Shown: positions 11,438-57,835 of the stretch, piece after piece | Position numbering within the stretch: position 1 is the stretch's first letter | Layout: each line of letters begins with the position of its first letter | Origin: Chthoniobacterales bacterium | GTDB lineage: Bacteria; Verrucomicrobiota; Verrucomicrobiia; Chthoniobacterales; JAFAMB01 | Reading direction: 5' to 3' | Assembly (NCBI GenBank): GCA_035938215.1 | Contig: DASZHC010000054.1 | Location: forward strand, 830 to 64,829 | Length of the DNA: 64,000 nt | Program-made: the position numbers and the translations under genes | Notes under the pieces: generated by a model | Databases searched by the model: none | What the model saw: the letters and a program-made list of their open reading frames with translations, nothing else | Told to the model about the DNA's origin: nothing

Positions 11438-11557
11438 GGAAACAAGCTCTCAGGCACTGGTGTGGAAGCTATTGGGAGGCAAAGAGTTAGAAATTACGCT
11501 AGAGAGCCACATTGTGGGTGGTTTCGCCTTCTAAAGCGATTGCTGGTAGGCTAGCGA

Positions 11558-12160: not shown

Positions 12161-12224
12161 CGCACTCGATCTAAAACCTTGGCGCGGGTTCGCAAGCAAA
12201 AACCCTTCTTCGAGCTTCTTGCGC

Positions 12225-23523: not shown

Positions 23524-25038
23524 ATGGCTACGATCTGCGTTGATGTCGGTACCTCGGTCATCAAGACGGTCGCTTTCAACGACCGCGGCACCGAGATCGC
23601 CCTTGCCCGCCAGGAAACGGAAGTGCTGCGTCCCGCACCCGGCTTTTCCGAGCAAGACATGTATTCTGTGTGGGACGCGGCAGCCTTCACGGTCCGCACT
23701 GTTGTAAGCCAACTGTCCGATCCGGTACGCCTTATCTCGCTGACGGCTCAGGGGGATGGTTGCTGGCTGGTGGATGCCGACGGTCACCCTACCGGCCCTG
23801 CAATCCTGTGGAACGACGCGCGGTCCGCCACGATTGTTGATCGCTGGCGAGGGGCAGGCGTATTGAAGGAAGCCTTTCGCTGCAACGGCTCGCAGGCCTT
23901 CGCCGGCCTTCCCAACGCCCTCTTCACCTGGCTCAAGCAACATGATCCCGATCGCATGGAGCGTTCTTACAAGTCGCTCTGCTGCAACGGCTGGATTTTC
24001 TACAATCTGACCGGCCGGATGGCCATCGATGAGTCAGACGCATCCGTGCCATTTTTCGACGTGCGCGAGCGGCGCTATTCCCGCGAACTCCTTCAACTCT
24101 ACGACCTGGAGTGGGCCGAGCGGTTGTTGCCGGATGTACTTGCCAATGACCAGCGCATCGGCGAGCTGCGTTCGGCGGCGGCTGCCGAATTGGGTCTGCC
24201 GGCAGGGCTGCCTGTGGTCATGTCGCCTTATGATGTTGCCTCAACGGCCATCGGTGTCGGCGCGGTCAGCGACGGGCAGGCGTGCAGCATTCTCGGTACG
24301 ACGCTTTGTACTGAGCTTGTTATGGACCACGTCAACCTGGAAGGGGAACCGTCCGGGTTGACTATCCCATTCGGTCCGCCGGGGCTGTACCTGCGCGCCT
24401 TCCCAACCCTGGCCGGGGGCGAGGTTATCCATTGGGCGGTAAGACAGCTTGGTCTCAGCGAGCCATCGGACCTTAGTCAACTGGCTTCCAAAGTCGCGCC
24501 GGGTGCGGGCGGCCTTTGCCTTCTGCCGTACTTTTCTCCCGCCGGCGAGCGCGTACCGTTCCTGAACACTGGCGCCCGCGGCTCGCTTTTCGGGTTGTCG
24601 TTCGAACACGGCCGGGAGCATATCGCCCGAGCGGTGCTCGAAGGATTGTCTCTGGTCATCCGCGATTGTTTGCAGGCATCGCAAGAGGTGCCCTTTCCCC
24701 TACACGTTTGCGGCCTGTGCGGTGGTGGTGCGAAGAGCGAAGTATGGTGTCAACTGATTGCTGACGTCACAGGCACGCCAACCTTTCGCACCGTGGACCA
24801 GGAAGTCGGTGCGAAGGGGGCTTTCATTGCGGGATTGGTCGCCGTGGGCAAAGAGGCGGATTTTTCCAGCGCAACCAAGGATTATCTGCAAATCCGGGAC
24901 ATGTTCGAGCCGCACAAAGAATCGCACGCCCGTTACGATGAGTTGTTCGAGCAATTCCTCGCCATCCGCGAGAACACGTTGCCCATCTGGAAACAGATGG
25001 CGGATGGCGGCGCTCGATTGAGTCCGGCGGCAGCCTGA
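23524..25038 (+). CDS. FGGY-family carbohydrate kinase (substrate unknown)
   Basis: 504 aa. ICVDVGTSVIKTVAF N-terminus, C-terminal GGGAKSEVWCQLIADV. Confidence 0.85.
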   Translation: MATICVDVGTSVIKTVAFNDRGTEIALARQETEVLRPAPGFSEQDMYSVWDAAAFTVRTVVSQLSDPVRLISLTAQGDGCWLVDADGHPTGPAILWNDARSATIVDRWRGAGVLKEAFRCNGSQAFAGLPNALFTWLKQHDPDRMERSYKSLCCNGWIFYNLTGRMAIDESDASVPFFDVRERRYSRELLQLYDLEWAERLLPDVLANDQRIGELRSAAAAELGLPAGLPVVMSPYDVASTAIGVGAVSDGQACSILGTTLCTELVMDHVNLEGEPSGLTIPFGPPGLYLRAFPTLAGGEVIHWAVRQLGLSEPSDLSQLASKVAPGAGGLCLLPYFSPAGERVPFLNTGARGSLFGLSFEHGREHIARAVLEGLSLVIRDCLQASQEVPFPLHVCGLCGGGAKSEVWCQLIADVTGTPTFRTVDQEVGAKGAFIAGLVAVGKEADFSSATKDYLQIRDMFEPHKESHARYDELFEQFLAIRENTLPIWKQMADGGARLSPAAA

Positions 25039-25061
25039 TTTACTTGCAAGGCCCTTTCTTT

Positions 25062-26552
25062 ATGGCATTAAAGCAATCCTCGGACGCTGCCTGGCTCGGA
25101 CTGGATCTCGGCACTCAAAGTGTGCGCGCCATGGTTGTTTCCGGTACCGGCGAGACCTTGGCCGCCGGTTCGCACAAACTGACCAGCCGCCGCAACGGAC
25201 CCCGGCACGAACAGGACCCCGAGGAATGGTGGCGCGCCATCTCAGCCGCTTCCCGAGTGGCTCTTGCTGCGCTGCCTGCCGGCTTGACCATCTATGGTGT
25301 CGCAGTGGATGGCACGTCGGGCACGATCCTGCTTGTTGATGGCGGCGGCCGGCCGTTGACGCCGGGGTTGATGTACGATGACACCCGGGCGTTTGAGGAA
25401 ACCAAACGCGCCAACGAGGCCGGCGCGGCGGTTTGGGCCACGCTGGGCTACAACCGGATGCAGGCGCCTTGGGGTTTGCCGAAATTGCTCTGGCTGTTGG
25501 GTCAACATCGTGGCTTGGCCGCCGGGACGCGCCTGGCGCACCAGACCGATTTTATCAACCGTCGGCTAGTCGGCAGCGAGGTCGCCACGGACACGAGCAA
25601 CGCGCTGAAAACCGGCGTGGACCTGATCAACGAACGCTGGCCGCGCGAGGTGTTCGCCGCGCTTGGAGTGCCCGGCGAAATTCTGCCAGCCGTGGTGCGT
25701 GCCGGGACCGCTCTAGGGGTGGTGAGCGCGGAGGCGGCTACGCAGACGGGCATCCCGCAAGGCACGCCGGTCATCGCAGGCATGACGGACGGTTGTGCGG
25801 CACAGATGGGTGCGGGGGCATTGAGCGTCGGAAGCTGGAACTCCGTGCTGGGCACCACGCTCGTCCTCAAAGGGGTGACGCCCGATCTGATCAAGGACCC
25901 GGCTGGGGTCGTGTATTCACACCGTTCGCCCGATGGCAACTGGCTACCCGGCGGCGCTTCGAGCGCTGGCGCGGGAGTGATCTCCAAGCGTTTCCCCGAG
26001 CGCGATCTGGAAGCGCTCGGGACACAGGCTGCCGAGAGGGAGCCGGCAAGCGTGGTCACCTACCCTCTGCACGGACGCGGTGAACGTTTCCCCTTCATCG
26101 CGCCGGAAGCGGAGGGTTTTACCCTGGGCCGACCCGCCGACGAGATCGACCAGTATGCCGCGCTGCTCCAAGGCGTGGCGTTCATCGAGCGTCTCTGTTT
26201 TGACTACCTGGACATGCTCGGCGCGCCGGTCGGCGGCCCATTCGTGCTCACCGGCGGCGGGGCGAAGAGCCGGTACTGGTGCCAGTTGCGGGCGGACGTG
26301 CTCGGCAGCCCGGTTACCCTGCCGGAGAACGCCGAGGCGGCTTTAGGCATGGCGGTTCTGGCGGCGGCGGCCGGGCGCAAGGTGGCTGACGTTGCCCGCG
26401 CGATGGTGCGCATTCGCGAGGTGATCGACCCGCGCCCGGACCACGCCGGACGCTTCCGCGAGTCGTACCTGCGGCTGGTCGATGAACTCGCCCGTCGGGG
26501 CTGGGAGACGCCAGCCGTCGCGCAACACGCCCACCGGAGGGCCGCCGTGTGA
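25062..26552 (+). CDS. FGGY-family carbohydrate kinase (second, divergent; substrate unknown)
   Basis: LGLDLGTQSVRAMVV N-terminus, TGGGAKSRYWCQLRADV. ATG at 25062 preferred over the TTG at 25044. Confidence 0.85.
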   Translation: MALKQSSDAAWLGLDLGTQSVRAMVVSGTGETLAAGSHKLTSRRNGPRHEQDPEEWWRAISAASRVALAALPAGLTIYGVAVDGTSGTILLVDGGGRPLTPGLMYDDTRAFEETKRANEAGAAVWATLGYNRMQAPWGLPKLLWLLGQHRGLAAGTRLAHQTDFINRRLVGSEVATDTSNALKTGVDLINERWPREVFAALGVPGEILPAVVRAGTALGVVSAEAATQTGIPQGTPVIAGMTDGCAAQMGAGALSVGSWNSVLGTTLVLKGVTPDLIKDPAGVVYSHRSPDGNWLPGGASSAGAGVISKRFPERDLEALGTQAAEREPASVVTYPLHGRGERFPFIAPEAEGFTLGRPADEIDQYAALLQGVAFIERLCFDYLDMLGAPVGGPFVLTGGGAKSRYWCQLRADVLGSPVTLPENAEAALGMAVLAAAAGRKVADVARAMVRIREVIDPRPDHAGRFRESYLRLVDELARRGWETPAVAQHAHRRAAV

Positions 26553-27175
26553 CACACCTCTTCCTCGTTCGCCACGGGGCGACCGTCTGGCACGCTGAGA
26601 ACCGCTATGCCGGCACTTCCGACGTGGCATTGGACCCGGGTGGCTATGCGCAGGCCGAGCGACTTGCCGCATGGGCATCCGAGGCCGGGCTGGCGGCGAT
26701 CTGGTGCTCTCCGCTGAATCGCTCACGCGAAACGGCTGCCCCGGCCGCGCGCGCGGCGGGCCTTGAGCCGCGGATTGACGAACGCCTGCGCGAGATCGAC
26801 TTCGGCCAGATCGAGGGCAAGACCATGGCCGAGGCGGAGCAGCTTTTTCCCGAGGAAATCCGGCGCTTCAAAACCGATCCCGCGACTTATCCGATGCCCG
26901 GCGGCGAAGACCCGCATAAGGCTGCTTGCCGCGGGGTGTCAGCTCTGCGCGACATCGCCGCCGCGCACCCGCACGGGCGCGTGCTGGTCGTCGCGCATAA
27001 CACGCTCATCCGCCTGGCGCTCTGCTCCCTGTTTAGTATTCCGCTGGCGCGTTACCGGACGGTTTTTCCGGGTGTCCGCAATGGTGCGCTGACCGAAATC
27101 GGATTTGAGGATGAAAACGCCGCTCTCCTGCAATACAACTCTCCGCTGGGCACGGCCGGCGGACCACAGACCTAA
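26549..27175 (+). CDS. histidine phosphatase (phosphoglycerate-mutase-like) family protein
   Basis: 208 aa. LVRHGATVWH catalytic RHG motif. GTG start overlaps the upstream stop (GTGA). Confidence 0.85.
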   Translation: MTHLFLVRHGATVWHAENRYAGTSDVALDPGGYAQAERLAAWASEAGLAAIWCSPLNRSRETAAPAARAAGLEPRIDERLREIDFGQIEGKTMAEAEQLFPEEIRRFKTDPATYPMPGGEDPHKAACRGVSALRDIAAAHPHGRVLVVAHNTLIRLALCSLFSIPLARYRTVFPGVRNGALTEIGFEDENAALLQYNSPLGTAGGPQT

Positions 27176-27192
27176 CCTCCCAAACAAACATA

Positions 27193-28242
27193 ATGAACAC
27201 ACGCATCCTTGTCGCCGGCGATCACTTCATCCTGCCTTCCATCTTTGCCGACGCGATTCGCGCCGAAGTGAAGACCGCCATTGAGTTCCGCGAGTATCAA
27301 TCCCCTTGGCCGGGCGTGCCGTTTGGCGAGATCGGTGAGGTCACGGAAGCGTCTGGCTCGGAGGACGAGGTCATCCAGGCTCTTCAAGGGGTGAGCATCT
27401 ATGTGGCAAACCATGCTCCTCTCACGAAGAAAGTTCTCGAAGGCGCGCCCGACCTGAAACTTGCCGTCATTGCTCGCGGAGGTCCGACCAACGCTAACGT
27501 CAAGGCTGCTACCCAGCACGGCGTGCTCGTCTGCAACGCCCCCGGCCGCAACGCCACGGCCACCGCCGAGCACACCATGAGCCTGATCCTCGCGGTTCTG
27601 CGCCGCATTCCCGAAACGCATGCTGCGCTCGCGCTAGGCGAATGGCGCGGCGATTACTACGAATACGACAAGTGCGGGCTGGAGCTGGAAGATTCCACCG
27701 CCGGGTTGATCGGCTACGGCGCGATCGGCACCCGCGTGGCCCGGATGCTCCGCGGCTTCGGGTGTCACGTGCTCGTCTACGATCCCTATGTGAAGCCTGA
27801 GACCTTGGGAGACCTGGCGCAAAATGTCGAACTTAACGAACTGCTCTCCCGCTCACGCATCGTTTCCTTGCACGCGCGGGCCACAACCGAAACCCAGGGC
27901 ATGATCGGCGCGAAACAGCTCGCCGTGATGTCTGCCGGGTCGGTGCTTATCAACTGCGCGCGCGGCACGCTCGTCGATTACAACGCAGTTTGCGACGCGC
28001 TCGACAACGGCCACCTCTGGGGTGCCGGCTTCGACGTGTTTCCCGAAGAGCCGATCCCGGCGGACTCGCGCCTGCTGACAACTCCGCACATCGTGATGAC
28101 GCCTCACGTTGCGGGTGCCAGCAAGCAGACCGCCGAGAGAGCCGCGCAGATCGCCGCCGGTGAGGTTCGCCGCTTCCTTCACGGTGAACCGCTCGAACAC
28201 TGCATCAACCCGGAAGCCGCCGCCGGCAAATCTGCCCGGTAA
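27193..28242 (+). CDS. D-isomer-specific 2-hydroxyacid dehydrogenase (PGDH-like), NAD-binding
   Basis: 349 aa. GLIGYGAIGTRVARML Rossmann motif. NCARG...D and TPHVAG patterns. Confidence 0.85.
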   Translation: MNTRILVAGDHFILPSIFADAIRAEVKTAIEFREYQSPWPGVPFGEIGEVTEASGSEDEVIQALQGVSIYVANHAPLTKKVLEGAPDLKLAVIARGGPTNANVKAATQHGVLVCNAPGRNATATAEHTMSLILAVLRRIPETHAALALGEWRGDYYEYDKCGLELEDSTAGLIGYGAIGTRVARMLRGFGCHVLVYDPYVKPETLGDLAQNVELNELLSRSRIVSLHARATTETQGMIGAKQLAVMSAGSVLINCARGTLVDYNAVCDALDNGHLWGAGFDVFPEEPIPADSRLLTTPHIVMTPHVAGASKQTAERAAQIAAGEVRRFLHGEPLEHCINPEAAAGKSAR

Positions 28243-35876: not shown

Positions 35877-35979
35877 AGTGCGCCGTCTCGCATATAATGG
35901 TGATGTCGCCGCAGGTCAGTCGGCTGTTTTTCAGGCGCGAGCGACGAGCATATCTAGATCGATACCTAAGGACTGGGCA
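35877..35979. repeat. family B element, diverged left half (copy B1)
   Basis: ...GTCAGTCGGCTGTTTTTCAGGCGCGAGCGACGAGCATATCTAGATCGATACCTAAGGACTGGGCA aligns with the first roughly 100 bp of B3. Confidence 0.55.
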
Positions 35980-36000
35980 CCCGAGCTTTTGTCCCGAAAC

Positions 36001-36087
36001 GCGGCTCGCCGGAAGGCTCGCCCTACCATTGATGCGCCATGGAAACATGACCCTGCAGCGGTAGGGCGAAGCTCTGCTGAGCCGTCG
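36001..36087. repeat. degenerate family A-like arms in tail-to-head order (copy A6)
   Basis: CGGCTCGCCGGAAGGCTCGCCCTACC ... GGTAGGGCGAAGCTCTGCTGAGCCGTCGC. Diverged loop sequence. Confidence 0.4.
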
Positions 36088-36527
36088 CAATTCTCCACCA
36101 CAAACTAAACTCGGGATACATCATTCCCAAATAAATCTTCGGCGCCGTAAACGGTGGACTCGAATGTATGGGGAGGGCCGAAAACGGAGCACTGATGCAC
36201 AATCTTGCAGCGGCTCCTGTTCACCCGAGCGCTCGCTGAGCTCTCAATACTCGCGAGTTGTCTTGGCTGAGACCAGGCGAGCGTCGCCGGATTAGCCGGT
36301 ACAGGCGACCTGTGTGTCACTTGTCAAGCCGGCCGCAATTGGCGCTTAGGCCGGCTACTTGGGCTTGGACTGACCTATTCGCAGGCCAAGGCAAAGCACA
36401 TGGCGGTTCGCCAGACACGCTCGAGGGTCGCTGGGACGATTATCCTTGGTTCAAGGAATCGGTGAATTGGACAGAGGCGCGATTCGGGTGGAAATTTGCG
36501 ATCGGATTGCAGAGTTTCGATGTCCAG

Positions 36528-36688
36528 TGCGGCGAGTTATAAGCAGGAGGCATCCCGCCGCCCGCGAGTTGGTTGATTTTCAAGCCACGAACGACGAGCA
36601 TATCTAAACCGGATATGCTCCTCAGGTACGTCTCGCATACGGATCCTTTTGAAGCCAACGGTATAGCTCCTATTTATGACTCGATGTA
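36528..36688. mobile_element. family B MITE-like element, internally deleted form (copy B2)
   Basis: Both termini and flanking modules align with B3. About 107 bp of the B3 centre is absent. Central hairpin GAGCATATC-N7-GATATGCTC. Confidence 0.65.
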
Positions 36689-37185
36689 CCAGCCCCTGGG
36701 TTTTTGTTTTGGTCGTCTTGTTGCTTGTGGTGGGTTTTGCCCCGCGTTCAAGCGGCGAAATGATTGATCAACGTAACTTTGCGATTGATACCTATTTTCC
36801 TGGGCCGAATGAAATCCGTTTGGCCGGGCAACGAGCGCGGAACTATTGGGCGAAGAATGCGAATCGTTATGGCTCCAATCCGGTTTATCTTGCTGTCGAA
36901 ACTTCAAAGATTTTCGAAAGCGAAATTGTGCAGGATCTTTGGCCCAAGTTGATAAAGTCGCAAACAACAAGCTCCTTTTTCTCTAAGTCGCCGGGGAGAC
37001 ATCACACCGAAGCCGACTTAAAGGGAATCATGATTTTTGATACCCGCACCGGGACCGTTGTAGGTAATCGGGGCTTCGTTTTGGTCGATACTCCTAGCCG
37101 CGGGCGCGTCGCTCGGTTTGGCGATTACGTTGCCCGGTACATCGGCACTGGGCGGTCCTTCCCTGGGATTGTTGGTGGAAACTGA
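36676..37185 (+). CDS. hypothetical exported protein
   Basis: 169 aa. N-terminal hydrophobic segment VFVLVVLLLVVGFA. The ATG and first codons lie inside the right terminus of repeat B2. I recognise no family. Confidence 0.5.
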   Translation: MTRCTSPWVFVLVVLLLVVGFAPRSSGEMIDQRNFAIDTYFPGPNEIRLAGQRARNYWAKNANRYGSNPVYLAVETSKIFESEIVQDLWPKLIKSQTTSSFFSKSPGRHHTEADLKGIMIFDTRTGTVVGNRGFVLVDTPSRGRVARFGDYVARYIGTGRSFPGIVGGN

Positions 37186-38261: not shown

Positions 38262-39754
38262 CAGGGGAGGTTCGCGTGGATATCCGGCCTCGTACCATGT
38301 AAAACCTTGCTCCATCCGGAGCGCAACGATTCGCGCCGGTCCTGACTCATGCGCGGAGTGAAAGTTTCGCCAGCCTTCCATTGGGAGCTGATCTCCCCAG
38401 TCGATTTGAAGTAGCCCACGCCCAGACCCGCCAGGTAAGCGGCACCCATTGCCTTTGTTTCATCATTCTTCGGGCTGACGACAGGAACCCCGAGTATGTC
38501 CGCTTGAAACTGCATGAGCAGTTTGTTCTTGCAGGCGCCACCATCGACGCGCAGGTCGGAAAGCTGGATGCCGGAATCGGATTCCATCGCCGTGAGGATA
38601 TCCGTCACCTGATAGGCAATACTTTCAAGGGCTGCGCGAGCGATGTGGCCAGCCTTTGTGCTTCGCGTCAAGCCAACGATCCGTCCCTGTGCATACGGAT
38701 CCCAATAAGGGGCCCCCAAACCGGCAAAGGCGGGCACAAAATAGACGCCTCCGTTGTCCTTCACCGTAGCGGCGAGTTGTTCAACTTCGTCAGCCGATCG
38801 GATGATTCCCAATCCGTCCCGTAACCACTCAACCACAGCGCCTGCGCTGAAGACGCTGCCTTCGAGGGAATACTCGGTTTTGTGATTAATTCGCCAGGAA
38901 ACAGTCGTAACCAATTTGTTCTTTGAAACGATCGGCTGTGACCCCGTGTTCATGAGCATGAAACAACCGGTACCATAGGTATTCTTCACCATTCCCGGCC
39001 GGTTACACATGTGGCCAAAAAGCGCAGCCTGCTGATCCCCGGCATTTCCGGCGATTGGGATTCCGCGAAGCCCTGTTGTCACCTCGCCATAAATTTCGCT
39101 GGAACCTCTAATTTCTGGCAACAGCAGCCTTGGAATACCGAGCGCGTTGAGAAGGTGATCATCCCAACTATGCGTACGAATGTTATAGAGCATTGTTCGA
39201 GACGCATTCGTTTCGTCTGTGCAGTGGCACCGACCCCCCGTGAGTTTCCAGATCAGCCAGGAGTCGATCGTTCCAAAGGCCAGTTCACCCCTCTCAGCGC
39301 GCTCCCGGGCGCCAGGGACGTGATCCAGAAGCCAACGAACTTTCGTGCCGGAAAAATACGCATCGATCATAAGCCCGGTTTTTCGCTGAATAAACGGCTC
39401 CAAACCGTCGGCTTTCATCGTTTCGCACATGGGCGACGTCCGACGATCCTGCCAAACGATCGCGTTAGCAATCGGCTGCGAGGTTTGCCGATCCCAAATC
39501 ACCGATGTTTCGCGTTGATTGGTAATGCCGACGGCAGCAATATTCTCGGGCCCGATGTTTGCCTGACGCAATGCTTGAGTAGCGACACCGATTTGGGCCG
39601 ACCAGATTTCGTTGGGATCATGTTCCACCCAACCCGGGTGCGGATAAATCTGGGTGATTTCCTTCTCTGCGACCGAAACCTTTTGACCGAGATAATCCAC
39701 CACCAGTGCGCGAGCGTGCGTAGTGCTTTGATCAAGAGCGAGAAGATATTTCAT
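38261..39754 (-). CDS. glycerol kinase paralogue (copy 2, divergent phosphate-1 loop)
   Basis: 497 aa. Collinear with copy 1 at roughly 70% identity by eye, but has [10 protein letters not shown] where copy 1 has [13 protein letters not shown] overlap with the dhaM stop. Confidence 0.9.
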
Positions 39755-42966: not shown

Positions 42967-43051
42967 AATTTTCTAGCGAATTCGGGAGCAACTCTCTGGG
43001 AACTGGTGGTGGAATGTGGCTGAGTGGCAACGAGTTGTAGATTGCGGCGTT

Positions 43052-43132
43052 GGTAGGGCCGGATCTCCGAGCCGGCCGGTTGCTGGCTGGCAGCCAGGTT
43101 CTCGACGGGCGGCTCGGAGATCCGCCCCTACC
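43052..43132. repeat. family A double-hairpin element (copy A4) inside the dhaK-dhaL gap
   Basis: GGTAGGGCCGGATCTCCGAGCCGGCC ... GGGCGGCTCGGAGATCCGCCCCTACC. Preceded by an F-like half GTAGATTGCGGC. Confidence 0.85.
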
Positions 43133-43266
43133 AAGTCGTATGAGTCATCTTGAGCTTTTTGCACAAGTCACATAGCTTCAAGTAGTTGTGAACGCTATCT
43201 AGACCAGCTGAGAGTCGCTCCCGGAATGGCGCATGCGGACGCCCGGACCTTTCGGTCGCGTTCCGA

Positions 43267-46126: not shown

Positions 46127-46176
46127 ATACGGAGAACAGGTGGGATAACCTGTCTTGCAAAATTGTCAAGCTAGTG

Positions 46177-46444
46177 CATCGAGTCATAAGTAGGGGGCAT
46201 ACCGCCGTCGGTCAGTTGGCTGATTTTCAAGGCGCGAACGACGAGCATATCTCAATCGATACGTAAGGAGTGAGCAACGCTGAAAATCAGCCAACTGGCT
46301 ACGGCCCAAAGGTTGGCTTGAAAAGGGTCCGTCTGCGTCGTTGTTCGTTCGTTACGTATCGCACGGATATGCTCCTCACTCACGCCTCGCATCCAGACCC
46401 TTTTTGAAGCCAACGGTATGCCTCCTACTTATGGCTCGATGCAT
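46177..46444. mobile_element. family B MITE-like element, full-length copy (B3)
   Basis: About 30-bp inverted termini: TGCATCGAGTCATAAGTAGGGGGCATACCG (46177-46206) versus the reverse complement of 46415-44 (27/30). Internal hairpins 46214-30/46282-98 (17/17) and 46312-30/46397-416. Confidence 0.75.
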
Positions 46445-46531
46445 CAGGCACTCCCGTTTTGAGGGTCCCAAAAACCGGTTCTCCTGTTTGATCGAATCGG
46501 TAGCCTCTGCTATATGCTGAACTTGGACCAT

Positions 46532-50014: not shown

Positions 50015-50443
50015 ATGGCAGAATACCAGAATACGACTGTATCTTCGGGTGAGATGACTCAGCGCTTCATTGAGTTTGTCATGATGCAGGCTCAAAACGC
50101 TGCTTTCGTATTGGGGCAGATCCCACACCCTCAAACGGGAAAAGCAGATGTCAATCTGGACATGGCCCAGCTCTTGATTGATCAGCTCGTCATGATTCAG
50201 GAAAAAACAAAGGGCAACCTGAATTCCGACGAGTCGCGTATTCTTGCGCAGACTGTATCGAATCTTCAGATGCTCTTTGTCGAAGCCGCCCGAGAAAAGT
50301 CTTCGACCGCTGCAGAAACGCGTCCGGTAGAACCACAGAAAGCGGAACCGACAAAGGCGGAATCGCGCCAGCCTGAACAGGCAGCTTCGGAACAAACGGA
50401 CGCTGATGGGAAAAAGAAATTTGTCAAAAGCTACGGCTCCTGA
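50015..50443 (+). CDS. DUF1844 domain protein
   Basis: 142 aa. FIEFVMMQAQNAAFVLGQ...IDQLVMIQEKTKGNL matches my memory of the DUF1844 pattern. Confidence 0.65.
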   Translation: MAEYQNTTVSSGEMTQRFIEFVMMQAQNAAFVLGQIPHPQTGKADVNLDMAQLLIDQLVMIQEKTKGNLNSDESRILAQTVSNLQMLFVEAAREKSSTAAETRPVEPQKAEPTKAESRQPEQAASEQTDADGKKKFVKSYGS

Positions 50444-50504
50444 TTTTTTCCCGCGTCCGAAAAATCAGATTTTCTGTCTGTTGCGTAATAGATTAGTGTT
50501 TTCG

Positions 50505-51320
50505 ATGGTAATGAGCTTTGACCTCGGGAACGTAAGGATTGGCGGACCTGCACCGTTTTACGTTCTTGGGCCATGCGTTATCGAGTCTGAAAAGTTTTTG
50601 TTCTCCATCGCGTCCGATCTCAAGGAGATTTGCGGCGCGCTGAATATTTCCTGGATCTTCAAGGCGTCCTACGACAAAGCGAATCGAACTTCGGTCAAAT
50701 CGTTTCGGGGAATCGGCATGGAAGCTGGTTGCCGTGTGCTAAGGCAAATAGGGGACGATTTAGGGGTGCCGGTTACGACGGATGTTCATTCGCCGGAGGA
50801 GGCGCGGGCAGCCGGGGAATCGATCGACCTTTTGCAAATTCCCGCCTTCCTGAGCCGGCAAACGGATTTGATTCGGGCGGCAGCCGAGACCGGGCGGGCG
50901 GTTAATGTAAAGAAGGGACAATTTCTCGCGCCCTGGGATGTGCGAAATATCGCGGATAAACTCGAAACTTTCGGATGCCGTTCATACGTCTTTACCGAGA
51001 GAGGCTTCAGTTTTGGCTACAACAATCTCGTCGCAGACATGCGTTCGCTTTATTGGATCAGGGAACTTGGATATCCGGTTATCTTTGATGCCACGCATTC
51101 AGTGCAACGACCGAGCGGTGTTGGTGACCGCAGCGGAGGAGACGGCGTTTTGGCGCCTGTATTAGCGCGGGCGGCGGCTGCGGCGGGATGCGATGGCATA
51201 TTTATCGAGACTCACTATAATCCAAGTGAAGCGCTGTCAGACGGTCCGAATCAGATCCCGCTCAGGGAGCTTTCGAGAGTACTGGACAAGCTAAAAAGAA
51301 TCCATGAACTCGTTCGCTAG
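50505..51320 (+). CDS. kdsA: 3-deoxy-8-phosphooctulonate (KDO-8-P) synthase
   Basis: Start MVMSFDLGN (ATG 50505). PCVIES, FKASYDKANRTS, IPAFLSRQTDL, KKGQF, FDATHSVQ. Confidence 0.9.
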   Translation: MVMSFDLGNVRIGGPAPFYVLGPCVIESEKFLFSIASDLKEICGALNISWIFKASYDKANRTSVKSFRGIGMEAGCRVLRQIGDDLGVPVTTDVHSPEEARAAGESIDLLQIPAFLSRQTDLIRAAAETGRAVNVKKGQFLAPWDVRNIADKLETFGCRSYVFTERGFSFGYNNLVADMRSLYWIRELGYPVIFDATHSVQRPSGVGDRSGGDGVLAPVLARAAAAAGCDGIFIETHYNPSEALSDGPNQIPLRELSRVLDKLKRIHELVR

Positions 51321-51414
51321 AATCCTTGAAAAGCAAAATCGGTTGCAAAGGAGTCAAGCTTTTTCCGTGTCCGTGCATCAACCATCAGATGGCCTTGCTT
51401 TTCAAGGATTCTAT
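51317..51414. mobile_element. family C 98-bp MITE-like hairpin (copy C1)
   Basis: CTAGAATCCTTGAAAAGCAA ... TTGCTTTTCAAGGATTCTAT. TA dinucleotide on each side of the GAATCC...GGATTC termini. The kdsA stop TAG lies in its first bases. Confidence 0.75.
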
Positions 51415-51459
51415 AGAGCGAGGCTGCTTCACCCAAGCGACGCAGTTCCCAACTCGACC

Positions 51460-51990
51460 ATGCTACCCCTGGCTCTCGCCGGTCTGAGGCGCGGCCTCGC
51501 CAGGTGGGGCTTTTCTTTTGCGCTGGTTGCAGGGATTCTGGCGTCTGGTTTGGCGGAAGAACCTGCTCAGCTAAGAAAGATTGAAGTACCGGTGCCGATC
51601 GGGCACGAGGTCAAGGGATTGCGTCTCCCCGTTCGTAATGAAGAGGGAAAGATGGAAATGCAGTTTGATATCGAATCGGCGAGGCGCCTCAACGACCAGG
51701 ATATCGAAATGCACACGACCACTATACAGACTTATAACCAGCAAACCGCGGAACCGGATGCCAAGATCGAATTGAAAATCGCTGTGATAAATTTGGACAC
51801 CGATGTCATCAAGACGGAAGACCCTGTCAGGATTTCGAGGGAGGACTTTGTTCTCACAGCCGACGGAGGTGAATTCAACTCGAAGCTTCGCCAGGGACGA
51901 GTGCTTGGAAATGTCCACCTCATCATCTATGATCGGGAAAAATTTCAAACGAAGTCCGGCGCCCCAGAGTCAACAACAATAAGTCAGTGA
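51460..51990 (+). CDS. LptC-like membrane-anchored OstA-fold protein
   Basis: Start at MLPLALAGLRRGLARWGFSFALVAGILA (TM anchor). Sits immediately before lptA/lptB. The ORF-track extension back to 51304 reads through repeat C1. Confidence 0.5.
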   Translation: MLPLALAGLRRGLARWGFSFALVAGILASGLAEEPAQLRKIEVPVPIGHEVKGLRLPVRNEEGKMEMQFDIESARRLNDQDIEMHTTTIQTYNQQTAEPDAKIELKIAVINLDTDVIKTEDPVRISREDFVLTADGGEFNSKLRQGRVLGNVHLIIYDREKFQTKSGAPESTTISQ

Positions 51991-52739
51991 AGAGATTAGC
52001 AATTCTGGCCGGAACGATCTGCTGTTTAAGTTGCCAAATCGGAGATGCTCAGCCCAAGACGCCCACGCCAACCCGCGGCAACAAGCCATCGTCTGCTGCA
52101 ACAGCAAGGTCACCCCAGGGGAGCGCGAAACAGGCTCCCGGGGTACCGGAGTCTCAAGGTAAAACGAATGATGCATTTGGAGGTGACGACAAAGATCGTC
52201 CCAAGGGACCTACGGATATACGGTGCTCCCAGGAAGCACAGTTTGATACGAAGACACGGTCAGGGGTATTTTTTGGGAATGTGAAGGTTGTGGATCCGCA
52301 GTTTACACTGACGACGGATCGGCTGGCTGTAAGGCTTAACAAGGAAGAAGATGGAGGAGGGTTGCAGGAAGCTCAGGCAGACGGAAACGTCCTGATTGTG
52401 CATGTCAACCAGCCTAAGAGCGGCCAGAGCCCAGCTACGGCTGCTCCGGGCGCCCAGCCTCAGCCCCAGCAGCCCCAGCAGCCCCAGCCTCAACCCCAAC
52501 AACAACCGGTCACTTCGACAGGCAAATCCGAAAGAGCCGTCTACGAAGCGAAGGATGGTTCGATTACGCTCACCGGCTGGCCTCAGGTGACCCAGGGGGT
52601 CAATACGCATATAGCCACCGCACCGGGAACGAAGATGATTCTATACCGGGATGGGCGAATGCAAACCTACGGAAGCACTAGAACATTGATTCAGGATAGA
52701 ACGGCTACCAACAAACCCAATGCGAATGGCGCCCAGTAG
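51987..52739 (+). CDS. lptA: LptA-like (OstA N-terminal domain) periplasmic protein with a Q/P-rich insertion
   Basis: 250 aa. Signal peptide, OstA-like GNVKVVDPQFTLTTDRLAV...ADGNVLIV. PQPQQPQQPQPQPQQQP at nt 52455-52508. GTGA overlap with the upstream stop. Confidence 0.6.
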   Translation: MKRLAILAGTICCLSCQIGDAQPKTPTPTRGNKPSSAATARSPQGSAKQAPGVPESQGKTNDAFGGDDKDRPKGPTDIRCSQEAQFDTKTRSGVFFGNVKVVDPQFTLTTDRLAVRLNKEEDGGGLQEAQADGNVLIVHVNQPKSGQSPATAAPGAQPQPQQPQQPQPQPQQQPVTSTGKSERAVYEAKDGSITLTGWPQVTQGVNTHIATAPGTKMILYRDGRMQTYGSTRTLIQDRTATNKPNANGAQ

Positions 52740-52761
52740 ACTAGAACTTGAATCCCTCGTG

Positions 52762-53508
52762 ATGGAGGACCGGAAGCGGATCGAGAGGCCGATTCTACGG
52801 ACTGAGAGGCTGGTAAAAATTTACGGCGGACGCTCGGTCGTAAATGGGATCGACATCCAGGTCAACAAAGGGGAGATTGTAGGAATTTTAGGTCCAAATG
52901 GTGCTGGTAAAACGACTACATTTTATCTTATAGTAGGTTTAGTTCGGCCCAATAGTGGACGAGTCTATTTTCAGGATCGTGATGTGACCGGGTTTGCGAT
53001 GCATCGGAGAGCCCGCATGGGTATGGGTTACTTGCCTCAGGAAGAATCCATTTTCCGGAAACTAACCGTCGAACAGAATATCCTGGCCATTCTCGAAACA
53101 CTGCGCATTTCGCGCAAGGAACGACGCCGGCGCTGCGGCGAACTGCTCCGTCAATTCGGCATTGACAATCTGGCGAAGAATCAGGCCTTGACCCTGAGTG
53201 GAGGCGAGAAACGCCGACTAACTATCGCACGGTCACTGGTGACAAGTCCAAGATTGATGATGCTCGACGAGCCCTTCAGCGGTGTTGACCCGATCGCGGT
53301 TTCCGAAATTCAGCAACACATCTCGAATCTCAGTAAATCGGGATTAGCAATTTTGATTACCGATCACAATGTTCGGGAAACCTTGGAGATTGTGGACCGG
53401 GCTTATCTAATTTATGAGGGCAGAGTCGAGAGCCAGGGTACCCGTGAATTTTTGATCAACGATCCAATCAGCCGACAACTCTATCTCGGTGAACGCTTTC
53501 GGATGTAA
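52762..53508 (+). CDS. lptB: LPS export ABC transporter ATP-binding protein
   Basis: GPNGAGKTT, LSGGEKRRLTIARSL, MMLDEPFSGVDP. ATG at 52762 preferred. Confidence 0.9.
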   Translation: MEDRKRIERPILRTERLVKIYGGRSVVNGIDIQVNKGEIVGILGPNGAGKTTTFYLIVGLVRPNSGRVYFQDRDVTGFAMHRRARMGMGYLPQEESIFRKLTVEQNILAILETLRISRKERRRRCGELLRQFGIDNLAKNQALTLSGGEKRRLTIARSLVTSPRLMMLDEPFSGVDPIAVSEIQQHISNLSKSGLAILITDHNVRETLEIVDRAYLIYEGRVESQGTREFLINDPISRQLYLGERFRM

Positions 53509-53644
53509 CCCACGAACAATGCTGCCTGCCATCAGTAGCCAGCGTGTGCCAGGACTGCGTCTTGACGCCTGTGGCGCAATTCTTGCTCCCTGCTCGGGGA
53601 ACCGGAATGCTGATTCCAGCAGCCTAAAAAGAAAGCGCCCCATT

Positions 53645-54280
53645 ATGCAGATACGAAATGCAAATCCACCAATCCAGGTGACTGGGAGGCATGTGAGTGT
53701 CACGGATGCCATGAAGGAATATTGCCGACGCAGGTTGGCGTGCCTTCACCTCGACTATCCGAAAATCATCGAAGTCCAGGTTATCCTGGATGTAGAGAAG
53801 TACCGTCACACTGCCGAGGTGATTTTGCATTGCAGCAACCACATCACACTTGAGGCTAGCGCTGAGAGCGATGATATGTACGCTTCCATTGACCAGGTCG
53901 TGGACAAGATCGCGCGTCAGATGCGCAAATATAAGACGCGTCTCATGCGCCACCACCGCCCACGCAGACACGGCATCCGCCATCTCGAAGAGAAGGTGCT
54001 TCGATGGGAATGGACCGATGAAGTCGAGGAGGTTCCGCAAGCCGACCTTAGTCGAGCGCCGGCAGAGGAAGAGACAGTGGTCCCGGATCAATCCGGACCG
54101 CAAGTGATTCACAGCGAAAAGTATCCGGTGAAGCCGATGTTTATTGATGAAGCCGTGCTTCAAATGGAGATGTCCTCGAAGCAATTCCTCGTGTTCCTGA
54201 ACGCGAAGTCCGAGAAGGTCAGTGTCATCTATCGGCGCAAAAGCGGGGATTTCGGGTTGATCGAGCCGACATTTAGCTGA
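53645..54280 (+). CDS. hpf: ribosome hibernation-promoting factor, long form
   Basis: Start MQIRNANPPIQVTGRHVSVTDAMKEY (ATG 53645). C-terminal dimerisation domain KPMFIDEAVLQMEMSSKQFLVFLN. Confidence 0.9.
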   Translation: MQIRNANPPIQVTGRHVSVTDAMKEYCRRRLACLHLDYPKIIEVQVILDVEKYRHTAEVILHCSNHITLEASAESDDMYASIDQVVDKIARQMRKYKTRLMRHHRPRRHGIRHLEEKVLRWEWTDEVEEVPQADLSRAPAEEETVVPDQSGPQVIHSEKYPVKPMFIDEAVLQMEMSSKQFLVFLNAKSEKVSVIYRRKSGDFGLIEPTFS

Positions 54281-54518
54281 ACTGGGACACCAGACAATAT
54301 CTGAATCTGCCCGGGATTGAGCGCTCAGAGCGCCGTCTCGGGCGCTGCTTTTTGCCGAGCGAAAAAGTATTTGCCAAAGCTCTATCACGCGCATTTTTCT
54401 CGGGACGTGAGAAATGCAAGGGTTTGCGCCGGCGCCGGTTATTAGCTTCCGGTGTGGTGTTTCTCCGAAAGGCGCGATTTGATCGGAACAAAATCCATGC
54501 TATTTCGGGGACTGGACA

Positions 54519-54616
54519 CTAGAATCCTTGAAAAGCAAAACCGACTGCAGATGAGTCAAGTTTTTTCCGTATCTTCGGATTCATCATTAGGTGGTTTTGC
54601 TTTTCAAGGATTCTAG
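54519..54616. mobile_element. family C 98-bp MITE-like hairpin (copy C2)
   Basis: CTAGAATCCTTGAAAAGCAAAACC ... GGTTTTGCTTTTCAAGGATTCTAG. Same orientation as C1 and TA-flanked. Lies 28 bp upstream of hprK. Confidence 0.8.
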
Positions 54617-54643
54617 TGAGGAGAAAACCGCACAGATGCGAGA

Positions 54644-55600
54644 ATGAGACGAGGGAAGTTACCTTTTATTCCGGTTGGCGAATTTTACACCCGGCATGCG
54701 GACCCGCTTCAGCTCAAACTCGTAGGACCGTCTCTTGGCTTCGAACGCAAAATTCGTGAACCTACGATCAATCGCCCCGGTTTGGCGCTCTCCGGTTTTT
54801 TTACCTATTTTGCCGCGAAACGCATTCAAGTGCTGGGGAACGCAGAAGTTAGCTACTTAAAGAGCCTGCCACAAATCGAACAGCAGGAGCGGTGTCTCCA
54901 ACTCTGCCGCCAGCATGTCCCTTGTATCGTCGTCTCTCGAAATTTGCCGGTTCCGAAAGCTTTGTCAGATGCTGCCGCAGAACTGACCATCGCCATTTTT
55001 AGAACACCGATGGTAACGATGCGGTTTATCAACGCGGCGACGATCGGCCTTGAAATGGATTTTGCTCCCACCACTACCGAGCACGGCAGCATGGTGGACA
55101 TTATGGGCATTGGGGCGATGATCCGGGGTTCGAGTGGCGTTGGCAAAAGCGAGTGCGTCCTCGGTCTGATTGAACGCGGGTACAGTCTTGTAAGCGACGA
55201 TGTTACGCGCTTCCGCGTTTTGGATGGGCGTGAACTTGTTGGCACAGCACCGGATCTAACGCGTTATCATATGGAAGTCCGAGGGCTCGGAATCATTAAT
55301 GTCGCTTCCATTTTTGGAGTTGGTAGCATCAGGATTGAAAAGCGTCTTGACCTGGTAGTAACCCTGCGTGACTGGCAAGAGCTTGAAGAGGTTGATAGGA
55401 TTGGACTTGAGCAGGAATTTTACGAGATTCTAGACATTCGGATTCCGCACATCACCATTCCTGTCAGGACGGGGCGCGATCTGGCTCGATTGGTTGAGGT
55501 GGCCGCCTTGGATCAAAAGCTGAAAGGCCTTGGTCAGAACAGCGCGGTGGAATTTAACCAGCGGTTGTTGAATTTAATGCAATCGAACAAGGAGATGTGA
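54644..55600 (+). CDS. hprK: HPr kinase/phosphorylase
   Basis: 318 aa. P-loop GSSGVGKSE; signature EVRGLGIINV. Confidence 0.9.
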   Translation: MRRGKLPFIPVGEFYTRHADPLQLKLVGPSLGFERKIREPTINRPGLALSGFFTYFAAKRIQVLGNAEVSYLKSLPQIEQQERCLQLCRQHVPCIVVSRNLPVPKALSDAAAELTIAIFRTPMVTMRFINAATIGLEMDFAPTTTEHGSMVDIMGIGAMIRGSSGVGKSECVLGLIERGYSLVSDDVTRFRVLDGRELVGTAPDLTRYHMEVRGLGIINVASIFGVGSIRIEKRLDLVVTLRDWQELEEVDRIGLEQEFYEILDIRIPHITIPVRTGRDLARLVEVAALDQKLKGLGQNSAVEFNQRLLNLMQSNKEM

Positions 55601-55899
55601 TGGGTTTGTTGAGTAGGCGACTAGCTTCGGGAAAAATTCAAAAAGAGGTAACGATTTTGAATAAGCTCGGCTTACACGCTCGCCCGGCGGCCATGTTCGT
55701 ACGTGTGGCCAACAAACACAGAGCGGATATCTGGGTTGAAAAAGACGGAGAACAAGTTAACGGGAAGAGCATCATGGGACTGATGATGCTTGCGGCCGGC
55801 CAGGGGACAAAACTGCTTTTATCGGTTGAGGGCACTGATGCCGAAAAGGCTATTCAGGAACTCGAACTGCTGATCGAAAAACGATTCGATGAGGAATAA
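55600..55899 (+). CDS. ptsH: phosphocarrier protein HPr
   Basis: GLHARPAAMF (His-15 site) and NGKSIMGLMML (Ser-46 site). The ATG overlaps the hprK stop (TGATG); a GTG at 55597 is also possible. Confidence 0.9.
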   Translation: MGLLSRRLASGKIQKEVTILNKLGLHARPAAMFVRVANKHRADIWVEKDGEQVNGKSIMGLMMLAAGQGTKLLLSVEGTDAEKAIQELELLIEKRFDEE

Positions 55900-57661
55900 G
55901 GCCGGAATGAGCGGTCAGGAAGCAAGATTTCAGGGGCTGGGTGTAGGTCCAGGGATTGCCCGCGGGATCGTTTTTATCCATCACCCCGACGACGAAGAAC
56001 CTCCTAAAAGGCGAATTGATGAATCTGACGTCGCCAACGAGATCGTTCGCTTCGAGAGTGCGCTCATTGCGACTCGCGCGCAGATCCTCGAAATGCAGCA
56101 ACGCATCGCCGAGGCGATCGGCGCAAAAGATGCCAGCATTTTCGACGCGCATTTACTGGTCGTCGAAGACCGAACCTTGATCGACGAGGTGCTTCGCACG
56201 CTTGAGCGGGACAAGTTTAACGTGGAATTCATTTTCGCCGAGGTTGCGAATCGGTATGCGAAAACGTTAAGCGAGATAGACGATCCGTATCTGCGTGAAC
56301 GGGCGTTCGATATACACGATGTTACTCGTCGTGTGATTCGCAATTTGCTCGGGCGGTCGACGAAGACCCTTGGTGCCATGGATGTGCCTCAAATCGTGGT
56401 CGCCCACAACATCACGCCGTCTGATACGGCGATGCTGAATCGCCAGATGGTCCTTGGCTTTGCTACAGACGTGGGTAGCCGGACATCGCACACGGCGATC
56501 ATGGCGCGTTCATTGAACATCCCCGCGGTGGTGGGTCTGAAGGATATTTCATTGCGCCTGCAACCGGGGGATCAAGTACTGCTCGACGGAAACAGTGGCG
56601 TTGTGATCCTGAATCCCACCGAGCAGACCTTGTGGGAATACGGCGAGATCGAGGTCAAATTGGAACATGTCCAGGAGGTGCTGACGGGACTACGGGACAC
56701 TGAAAGCACAACGGCGGACGGCCGTCATGTTATCCTCTCCGCCAACATTGAATTGCCGGAAGATGTTCCGCTCGTAGTCGAAGCCGGAGCCGAAGGCATA
56801 GGCCTCTATAGAACCGAGTTTTTCTATATGAACAAAAACGAGCTGCCGAGCGAGGAAGAGCAATTTGACACTTATCGCTCGGTTGCCGAGGCAATTATGC
56901 CGGAATCGGTCATTATTCGAACTCTGGATTTAGGCGGTGACAAGTTTTTGAGCCATTCCCATCTTCCAACGGAGATCAATCCATTTCTCGGTTGCCGAGC
57001 CATCCGGTTTTGCATTGAGCGTCCCGATATTTTCAAGGCCCAGTTGCGTGCGATTCTGAGAGCGGCAGCTACAGGAAATGTTCGAATGATGTTCCCAATG
57101 ATATCCGGATTGTCCGAGTTGCGACAGGCGAAGGAAATTCTGGAAGTCTGCAAAGCGGAGCTTCGGGACGAGCGCAAGCCGTTTAAGGAGGATATCGAGC
57201 TTGGAATAATGATCGAGGTGCCGAGCGCGGTTCTGGTCGCGGACGCGCTGGCCCGTGAGGTGAAGTTTTTCAGCATCGGCACTAATGATTTGATTCAGTA
57301 CACAATTGCCGTGGACCGGGTAAATGAACGAATCGCGCACCTTTACGAACCTACGCATCCCGCGATTCTGCGTCTGATCGAGATGACGGTGACAGCGGCT
57401 CATGCCAACGGTATCTGGGTCGGCGTTTGCGGAGAGATGGCCGGCGAAATCACTTTGACGCCGCTTTTGCTCGCACTTGGGGTCGATGAGTTGAGTGCCA
57501 GCGCCAGCCTGGTGCCAAGAGTAAAAAAAGCTGTACAGACATTGGACACGAAAGAGTGCAATCGGCTACTCGAAGATATTCGGGACCTTCATTCCGCAGC
57601 CGAAATCCTGGAGCGTTGCGAAGAAGTTGCGCGGCGTCATTATGCGGAATTATTGAATTGA
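55889..57661 (+). CDS. ptsI: phosphoenolpyruvate-protein phosphotransferase (enzyme I)
   Basis: 590 aa. GSRTSHTAIMARSLNIPAVVG; FFSIGTNDLIQY; GVCGEMAG. The start may be the Met at 55907. Confidence 0.9.
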   Translation: MRNKAGMSGQEARFQGLGVGPGIARGIVFIHHPDDEEPPKRRIDESDVANEIVRFESALIATRAQILEMQQRIAEAIGAKDASIFDAHLLVVEDRTLIDEVLRTLERDKFNVEFIFAEVANRYAKTLSEIDDPYLRERAFDIHDVTRRVIRNLLGRSTKTLGAMDVPQIVVAHNITPSDTAMLNRQMVLGFATDVGSRTSHTAIMARSLNIPAVVGLKDISLRLQPGDQVLLDGNSGVVILNPTEQTLWEYGEIEVKLEHVQEVLTGLRDTESTTADGRHVILSANIELPEDVPLVVEAGAEGIGLYRTEFFYMNKNELPSEEEQFDTYRSVAEAIMPESVIIRTLDLGGDKFLSHSHLPTEINPFLGCRAIRFCIERPDIFKAQLRAILRAAATGNVRMMFPMISGLSELRQAKEILEVCKAELRDERKPFKEDIELGIMIEVPSAVLVADALAREVKFFSIGTNDLIQYTIAVDRVNERIAHLYEPTHPAILRLIEMTVTAAHANGIWVGVCGEMAGEITLTPLLLALGVDELSASASLVPRVKKAVQTLDTKECNRLLEDIRDLHSAAEILERCEEVARRHYAELLN

Positions 57662-57777
57662 CCGGGAAAGGGAGAGGTTCGCTTGGATGGGCTGTTTTTT
57701 CGCCGGCGCCCACAAATACCTTCAGCTCTGTGGCTTGTGCAACGATCGGTGCGCTGTGCAGGTTCGGCAGTGGACGT

Positions 57778-57835
57778 GGTAGGGGCAGATCTCCGAGCTG
57801 CCCACCGAGAATAGCGCCCTTGCCTTACGAGTCTA
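57778..57835. repeat. family A half element (copy A5: one arm plus core)
   Basis: GGTAGGGGCAGATCTCCGAGCTGCCC plus a core that matches the reverse complement of A2 at 31/35. The second arm is absent. Confidence 0.7.

Follow-up and report, generated by a model that had tools for sequence, protein, structure and literature searches.

The 64,000-nt stretch of DNA analysed here (the window; positions 830 to 64,829 of contig DASZHC010000054.1, assembly GCA_035938215.1) comes from a Chthoniobacterales bacterium and carries two copies, C1 and C2, of a short repeat that we term family C, one on each side of the genes lptC-lptA-lptB-hpf. We put at about three in four the probability that these are two independently acquired copies of a family of non-autonomous transposons (MITEs, miniature transposable elements with inverted repeats) of approximately 92 nt in soil Chthoniobacterales. 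The reading is carried by the membership of both copies in a dispersed family, by their TA flanks, by comparison of a filled with an empty insertion site, by the presence and absence of the copies between close relatives and by preservation of the reading frame that C1 enters. Their position on either side of lptC-lptA-lptB-hpf is a coincidence.

Two copies of family C in the window

C1 (51320–51411) and C2 (54522–54613) lie on the plus strand in the same orientation, each 92 nt long between TA dinucleotides, with an offset of 3202 nt and 80% identity to one another. Their terminal inverted repeats measure 19–22 nt; those of C1 are GAATCCTTGAAAAGCAAAA and CTTGCTTTTCAAGGATTC, the right one having two mismatches (CCTTGC where TTTTGC is expected). 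The TA dinucleotides that bound C1 are at 51318–51319 and 51412–51413, and the locus 51318–51417 reads cgcTA-GAATCCTTGAAAAGCAAAATCGG...CCTTGCTTTTCAAGGATTC-TAtaga. For C2 they are at 54520–54521 and 54614–54615 (54520–54615 with the element), within a locus (54517–54618) that reads cacTA-GAATCCTTGAAAAGCAAAACCG...GTTTTGCTTTTCAAGGATTC-TAgtg. The 18-mer terminus GAATCCTTGAAAAGCAAA matched the window four times with up to three mismatches, at both ends of each copy, against a chance expectation of 0.07, and a profile built from 20 family-C copies found C1 and C2 only. The gene order is kdsA (KDO-8-phosphate synthase; Pfam DAHP_synth_1; 50406–51320, plus strand), LptC-like, LptA-like, lptB, hpf, hprK (HPr kinase/phosphorylase; 54644–55600, plus strand), ptsH and ptsI. 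The original prediction of two TA-flanked, same-orientation copies with inverted termini around lptC-lptA-lptB-hpf is borne out, with an element proper of 92 nt, and so are the gene identities that it gave from kdsA to hprK.

A dispersed, TA-flanked family

When one genome per species (596 Gb) was scanned with a 17-nt terminus, at least 81 stretches matched. By our own calculation a 17-mer should match 596 Gb about 70 times by chance, so that lone matches in unrelated phyla are at chance level. Among the matches listed, at least 24 stretches came from one Chthoniobacterales metagenome-assembled genome (MAG), DATMQC01, and paired termini were found at 19 further places, in either orientation, 89–99 nt apart, with one shortened copy of 70 nt. 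The MAGs with paired termini in that list are labelled Chthoniobacterales, Verrucomicrobia or Verrucomicrobiae, with the single exception of a 4-kb contig (locus L027; JAFAHS010000215.1) from a MAG labelled Deltaproteobacteria; this contig holds a full family-C copy followed by the tail of a second repeat, R2, which suggests either a mis-binned Verrucomicrobiota contig or horizontal transfer. Since none of the further family-C loci encodes kdsA, lptC, hpf or hprK, they are sites unrelated to the window. Orthologues at the loci from the genome scan gave no taxonomic placement of the window, but a protein 91% identical to the window's LptC carries the NCBI label Chthoniobacterales bacterium, which places the window organism in this same lineage. 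A search of plasmids for family C gave no match, and the one match from a scan of viral contigs, within a coding region rich in AT, is put down to chance. A literature search for MITEs in Verrucomicrobia returned no paper concerned with one by title or abstract.

The resulting dataset comprises 21 full family-C copies together with partial ones, all small, non-coding and dispersed, and most of them intergenic. The termini (GAATCCTTGAAAAGCAAAA / TTTTGCTTTTCAAGGATTC, 19–22 nt) are nearly invariant among 20 copies. TA flanks the left end in 16/21 copies, the right end in 16/21 and both ends in 12/21, which supports the reading of C1 and C2 as members of a dispersed, TA-flanked family with inverted termini. 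The base outside the TA is often unlike between the two sides (ATAG vs CTAG or CTAA); the duplication is therefore of 2 bp, not 4, and an IS5-like 4-bp duplication of CTAG was ruled out. In the window (kdsA) and at L030 (a dnaJ-like gene), L025, L033, L036 and L067, the TA flank and the terminal G form the stop codon of the neighbouring gene. The end that abuts the stop codon is the left end in all five copies of clear orientation; the sixth (L033) is ambiguous.

These features would be accounted for by a transposase, supplied in trans, that recognises the 19–22-nt terminal inverted repeats, excises the element and pastes it into TA with duplication of that dinucleotide; we infer an enzyme of the IS630/Tc1-mariner type. 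TA duplication, the hallmark of IS630/Tc1-mariner elements, has been documented for ISY100 and IS630 (PMC2170065), and the same paper, citing Tenzen & Ohtsubo (1991), gives CTAG as the preferred target of IS630. The first base of the element is G and its last is C, so that CTAG would be restored on each side after insertion into CTAG, and a TAG stop after insertion into a stop codon of either TAG or TAA. Copies may thus abut stop codons because insertion into TA followed by the terminal G restores TAG, and TA-joined arrays of family C and of the modules R1, R2 and L1 (see below) may build up at the same spots because each insertion regenerates CTAG targets.

Presence and absence in relatives

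A metagenome scan with HprK yielded 80 further soil loci, with HprK identities of 99% to 73%, onto which six genes were mapped. Six JGI metagenome contigs on which HprK is identical to the window's have both copies and therefore represent the same population. Among the 80 loci, C2 was found only in L088, L155 and L161 (HprK 98–99% identical). L088 and L155 (HprK 99% identical) have no C1, their kdsA and lptC overlapping directly, and the presence of C2 without C1 there means that the copies were not acquired together. The loci L089, L092, L093 and L095 (HprK 96–97%) are without C2, and the two of these that reach the kdsA-lptC junction, L092 and L095, are also without C1. At HprK identities of 92% and below no locus has either copy and the gene order is kept. 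As neither copy occurs in distant relatives, they are not ancient fixed regulators, and the possibility of an ancient fixed regulatory sequence at both sites was ruled out on this ground. Comparison of the spacers in relatives, in which the copies differ between close relatives, instead bears out the original preference for a mobile sequence, and this distribution shows C1 and C2 to be recent and independently acquired. A half-copy lies downstream of ptsI in L089 and L151; there is none at that place in the window. The order hpf-hprK-ptsH-ptsI is kept down to 73% HprK identity where contigs are long enough, and no rpoN or ptsN lies between lptB and hpf (window 52720–55900).

The original prediction had gone further, proposing that the copies delimit the intervening genes and act on them as a pair, by insulating or co-regulating lptC-lptA-lptB-hpf or by permitting its excision or inversion. 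The common orientation, the strong hairpins and the position of one copy on each side of the four genes speak for such a role, which we nevertheless regard as exceedingly improbable. L088 and L155 carry C2 with an empty C1 site, and distant relatives keep the gene order with neither copy, so the two boundary copies are not inherited and lost together as those of an excisable or co-regulated cassette would be. The longest stretches identical between C1 and C2, of about 22 and 19 nt, are marginal for homologous recombination, and in all relative loci of sufficient length hpf still lies upstream of hprK, with no deleted form among them. Two further points against a paired role, the location of C1 and the signals that follow hpf, are taken up in the sections that follow.

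C1 lies inside the lptC frame

Throughout the clade lptC has a conserved ATG start, 14 nt upstream of the stop codon of kdsA, so that the genes overlap by 17 nt, and at the LptC N-terminus the pattern M(N/K)S...(K/R) leads into a hydrophobic helix. The corresponding ATG of the window (51304) puts C1 inside the lptC frame, not in an intergenic position ahead of lptC as the original description had it, and the start adopted in that description, ATG 51460, lies within R2. Correctly described was the beginning of C1 in the kdsA stop codon (TAG, 51318–51320), which survives because the flanking TA and the first G of C1 spell TAG.

The empty allele of L088 reads ATGAACTCGTTCGC-TA-GGGATGGCTTTTCTTTTGCG, and the empty sites of L088 and L155 are CGC-TA-GGG, a CTAG. 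The filled allele of L169, which encodes protein P0001, reads CGC-TA-[181 nt C+R2]-TA-GGG. In the window the series that follows the same TA (51318–51319, the target dinucleotide and left flank of C1) is C1 (92 nt), TA, TAGA, R2 (83 nt) and CA, C1 being half of the 181-nt C+R2 composite. The TA and TAGA, at 51412–51417, form the junction between C1 and R2, and TATAGAGCG is the recurrent right-hand neighbour of family-C copies; R2 itself (51418–51500, plus strand; flanks at 51414–51417 and 51501–51504) has the termini GCGAGGCYGC...GCGGCCTCGC and contains ATG 51460; and the CA at 51501–51502, which is TA in the orthologous allele L169, is a degraded second copy of the TA duplication. Comparison of L169 with L088 demonstrates, for the C+R2 composite, both the TA target and the duplication of TA at a CTAG. 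Together with the termini, the size and the dispersal of the family, it upholds the class originally proposed, a MITE that duplicates TA. C1 did not arrive alone: it came as part of the C+R2 composite of 181 nt, which inserted at the TA within the stop codon of kdsA.

The insertion TA lies inside codons 5–6 of the overlapping lptC. The open reading frame (ORF) from ATG 51304 (51304–51990, plus strand) is 687 nt long in the window vs 504 nt in L088, a difference of exactly 183 nt between flanks that are 96% identical, and LptC is 228 aa long vs 167 aa for the empty allele, with 61 extra codons through C1 and R2 and no stop. There are no stops across the insert in the lptC frame, as against two and three in the other two frames, and 8.9% of shuffles of the insert composition are stop-free in the lptC frame. 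The frame of L169 is likewise open, and P0001 is by our own count 84% identical to the window over the inserted peptide. JGI gene callers are split between a product of 228 aa (start 51304) and one of 176 aa (start 51460, inside R2). Synthesis of LptC probably begins at ATG 51304, which gives it a cytoplasmic tail of 61 repeat-encoded residues, or else at the new ATG 51460 in R2. A coding frame conserved across family-C copies was considered and rejected: of three other C+R2 composites one has stops in the lptC register, and a stop in that register is found in the main family-C subfamily as well (aligned copies read by eye).

Alleles of the kdsA/lptC junction

Look-ups of proteins and DNA returned a series of alleles at this junction, which appears to be a hot spot, and the start codons vary among these alleles. 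The empty allele gives proteins of 163–167 aa, the lengths most often found in the 120 homologues listed, and the C+R2 allele is represented by a protein of 228 aa in the window and by P0001, of 225 aa. An R2-only allele with an eroded left end (L170/P0007) adds 24 codons, and an allele in which the left terminus of C is fused to the R2 tail (L171/P0013) adds 17. P0006 (180 aa), available as a protein sequence only, retains just the R2-tail peptide AGLRRGLAR. The left half of C is fused to lptC in L097 and in P0009/P0010. The conserved frame is broken in L172/P0011, where an array of approximately 420 nt consists of a truncated C, a full C, R1 and R2 and the ORF begins within R1, and in L173/P0046, where the left part of C is joined to R2 and the start is GTG. 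In L090/P0012 there is a whole but eroded C, of a subfamily unlike that of C1, whose core and right terminus encode most of a predicted membrane helix (VFLCICPLVIGWFCFSA; Kyte–Doolittle hydropathy 2.29 over 17 residues).

There are at least eight distinct alleles, most of them in frame with the conserved ATG, and at least seven besides the window's carry differing remnants of C, R1 and R2. All of the alleles retain an ORF that continues into the conserved LptC domain. Of nine distinct insertion/deletion variants, seven are in frame with that ATG, with a binomial P of about 0.008 against the one-third expected by chance, a value to be read with the shared ancestry of alleles and the preference of gene callers for long ORFs in mind. 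That the repeat-encoded LptC residues are translated is an inference. A tentative extension of this, which we hold to be possible but not probable, is that the overlap of the kdsA stop and the lptC start serves as a recurrent landing pad, at which TA-inserting repeats remodel the LptC start and cytoplasmic tail and, in one lineage, most of the membrane anchor too. LptC is a component of lipopolysaccharide (LPS) transport and is usually essential. The alleles offer a natural experiment on the amount of foreign sequence that an LPS-transport protein can accommodate at its N-terminus. If repeat segments are translated, MITEs would be raw material for protein N-termini; combined with the bias in orientation described below, this would imply that selection acts on the repeats as transcribed and translated sequence, beyond DNA parasitism. 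On the practical side, the conflict between gene callers over the lptC start (228 vs 176 aa) calls for repeat-aware annotation, and the hypervariable spacers and variable N-termini that the repeats yield beside conserved genes are useful for strain tracking.

RNA structure and the hpf-hprK spacer

As RNA, C1 and C2 are predicted to fold with energies of −36.2 kcal/mol (z = −5.1) and −50.3 kcal/mol (z = −9.7). These very stable folds, the co-orientation of the core with the flanking genes in 10/11 tandem contexts and the cleavage of Correia and ERIC repeats by RNases when transcribed (PMC2649163, PMC3049150), which is an argument by analogy, could all be taken to mean that the hairpins are a conserved cis-regulatory RNA (an attenuator, a processing site or a small RNA) selected at both sites. 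We judge this very improbable, as the same spacers are empty of copies in relatives with HprK identities of 97% and below and copies occur at many unrelated loci. Rfam gave no match for C1 or C2 at gathering thresholds, and at relaxed E-value thresholds the only matches were to microRNA precursors, at chance level. The stem of the family-C consensus consists of the terminal repeats and has one compensatory pair (covariation term +0.42); changes in the stem break pairs instead of compensating. Neither covariation, nor a known family, nor a U-tract thus marks C1 and C2 as structured RNAs or terminators, and their sequences appear to lend no support to such a role. A scan for sigma-70 promoters and terminators found nothing inside C1 or C2 or at their ends, inspection by eye of the termini for sigma-70, sigma-54 and Bacteroidetes-type boxes was unconvincing, and no T-run follows either hairpin. 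If co-transcribed, the 19–24-bp stems could plausibly serve as RNase III substrates or 3′ stabilisers, in line with the transcribed stems of Correia, ERIC and BIME repeats, which are processed by RNases or are stabilising (PMC2649163, PMC3049150).

Directly after hpf, upstream of C2, there is a terminator-like hairpin (54329–54346) followed by a T-run, the two together spanning 54329–54356 (plus strand). Because this segment aligns with close relatives, hpf probably ends its transcription unit independently of C2. This again argues against the insulation of a block by C1 and C2: a terminator-like hairpin was already in place after hpf, neither element has a T-run, and C1 is situated within the conserved kdsA/lptC overlap and not at an operon border. 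With the independent acquisition of the copies and the want of compensatory evolution in their stems, the proposal that they delimit, insulate or make excisable the intervening genes falls.

C2 is best explained as a solo copy inserted into a hypervariable hpf-hprK spacer. It is preceded by a module, L1 (TCCATGCTATTTCGGGGACTGGACAC; 54494–54519, plus strand), that recurs to the left of family-C copies in L001 and L069, and its flanks are CAC-TA...TA-GTG. Beyond it lie the GAGGAG box and the 3-codon mini-ORF (54636–54647, plus strand; overlapping the hprK ATG) that were pointed out in the original prediction; both are present as described, and they are restricted to close relatives, the mini-ORF being absent from L092, L093, L095, L100 and L103 and the box from L088.

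Repeat modules associated with family C

To the right of C, at least 12 of the 21 copies have TATAGAGCG(G/A)G, the left end of R2 or R1. R1 is a repeat of approximately 165 nt (GAGCGGGACC...GGTCCCGC), itself then followed by R2, and it lies to the right of family-C copies in L007, L009, L022, L035, L055, L067 and L172, nested between these copies and R2 through junctions of the AGA type (TATAGA...AAGA). R2 is present in at least 13 copies among the loci, often after C or R1, with TAG as its right flank in 8/16 distinct copies listed, and fragments of it occur in the hpf-hprK spacers of relatives. As a candidate structured RNA, R2 was set aside on account of its weak covariation. The left-hand neighbour of C is often L1 (ATGYTATTTCGGGGACAGGACAC-TA) or L2 (ATTATATGCGAGACGGTGCAC-TA). 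Where the window has L1 and then C2, L096 and L097 have L1 without C2 and then a different module of approximately 130 nt. The combinations seen are C-R2, C-R1-R2 and truncated C-C-R1-R2. The copy most similar to C1 (92% identical) belongs to L060, an unrelated locus, where R2 of the same subtype comes after it, ATGCTACCCCTGG included.

Several observations weigh against the reading of family C as a MITE family mobilised by an IS630/Tc1-mariner-type transposase. No autonomous element was found, since solo termini adjoin a dnaJ-like gene and large ORFs whose translations, judged by eye, do not look like transposases, and a six-frame regular-expression search for the IS630/Tc1 catalytic motif (YSPxLNPIE-like) gave 0 matches in 1.28 Mb, which is a small and biased sample of these genomes. 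No pair of copies within a genome is more than 93.5% identical, so there is no sign of a very recent burst. Two asymmetries of the family-C copies in L001–L081 and the window are unexpected for symmetric cut-and-paste transposition: the core has the orientation of its flanking genes in 10/11 independent tandem-gene contexts, with the left end as the one that abuts stop codons, and conservation is higher at the right terminus than at the left. They may point to selection acting on the transcribed strand or on the linked modules to the right. Likewise unexpected is the recurrence of the unlike-ended C+R2 composite at the unrelated locus L060. Finally, a clean empty site for C2 was sought and not found, the corresponding spacers of relatives carrying different modules. 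As to its age, identities between loci of one genome reach 93.5% at most and the median for all pairs of copies is 80%, which makes family C an old family that is still turning over.

Some of these observations would equally suit a TA-targeting mobile element moved by an enzyme of another kind (an IS5-family enzyme of the IS427 group, with 2-bp duplications, or an undescribed one), or recombination or gene conversion between mosaic clusters. Besides the failure to find an IS630-type motif in 1.28 Mb and an orientation bias that is atypical for Tc1/IS630, unlike-ended C+R2 composites recur at unrelated loci and the modules of the hpf-hprK spacer have been exchanged while its flanks are the same. 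Set against this are the clean TA duplication at CTAG, a textbook IS630 signature (PMC2170065), and the small and biased nature of the 1.28 Mb sample, and we consider this explanation unlikely, preferring a MITE family moved by an IS630/Tc1-mariner-type enzyme.

Other repeats and features of the window

GTAG-headed palindromes (GGTAGGGGCAGATCTCCGAGCTGCCC) occur in inverted pairs at 6608–6702, 11555–11653, 12222–12364, 43050–43134 and 57773–57834 and have the appearance of REP/REPIN-type repeats, a class that PMC3733652 describes. Family C itself was excluded from the REP/RAYT palindromes (20–40 nt, with a GTAG or CGTC head), being 92 nt long with a GAATCC head. A perfect 32-nt inverted repeat (CGACGGGGTCATGTCTCAATATTCAACATTCG; 2235–2266 and 2337–2368), with 70 nt between its arms, may be a small hairpin element, and several collinear repeats, 80–85% identical and with one pair inverted, in two ORF-poor gaps (35927–36706 and 46170–46461), may be remnants of another mobile element. 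A 224-nt direct repeat (19986–20209 and 39240–39463; 73% identical) lies in two long minus-strand ORFs that are probably paralogous genes. The GC content is 0.64 at 24001–28000 vs about 0.53 in the rest of the window, and the LptA-like protein contains a PQ-rich low-complexity stretch (PQPQQPQQPQPQPQQQP; 52400–52560).

Comparison with known systems

Correia elements (CREE) of Neisseria duplicate TA and are like family C in their size, hairpin-forming terminal repeats, gene-end location and variable presence. They are 100–155 bp long, with long inverted repeats that form hairpins in transcripts, lie near gene ends and vary between strains (PMC2649163). Promoter, IHF-binding and RNase III activities are documented for CREE, whereas C1 and C2 are without a detected sigma-70-like promoter. 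The pneumococcal RUP, a 107-bp repeat whose mobilisation by IS630-Spn1 has been proposed (PMC3049150), is also similar, in that both it and family C are non-coding, about 100 nt long and bounded by terminal inverted repeats, and are dispersed mostly between genes, RUP being linked to an IS630-type element. The two differ in host phylum, we claim no similarity of sequence, and RUP has an insertion sequence with matching termini.

In its effect on lptC, the C1 and R2 insertion resembles the Rickettsia palindromic element (RPE), a repeat inserted in frame in protein genes with the ORF kept open (PMC10969869). The host ORF is likewise left open in the window (+183 nt), in-frame insertion having contributed 61 codons to lptC here, while in L090 C-derived DNA encodes most of a predicted membrane helix. 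RPE copies share a conserved peptide-coding frame, whereas family-C copies do not. If the repeat segments are translated, the lptC alleles would nonetheless be a free-living counterpart of the RPE.

Variable combinations of modules at the same intergenic spots are a feature that family C has in common with BIME of Escherichia coli, BOX of the pneumococcus and the neisserial NIME. The mosaics described here are, however, made up of TA-joined modules that each have inverted termini of their own, which points to nested TA-targeted insertion and not to assembly of the REP/RAYT or BOX type. With IS630 and ISY100 family C shares insertion into TA and duplication of TA, with a preference for CTAG on the part of IS630; these are autonomous elements of approximately 1 kb that encode a DDE transposase, whereas family C is 92 nt long and non-coding. 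Family C would on this evidence belong to an ordinary class of selfish repeats, found here in a poorly studied, uncultured soil lineage, and as judged from sequence comparison its anatomy and TA duplication match those of bacterial MITEs of the IS630/Tc1-mariner type.

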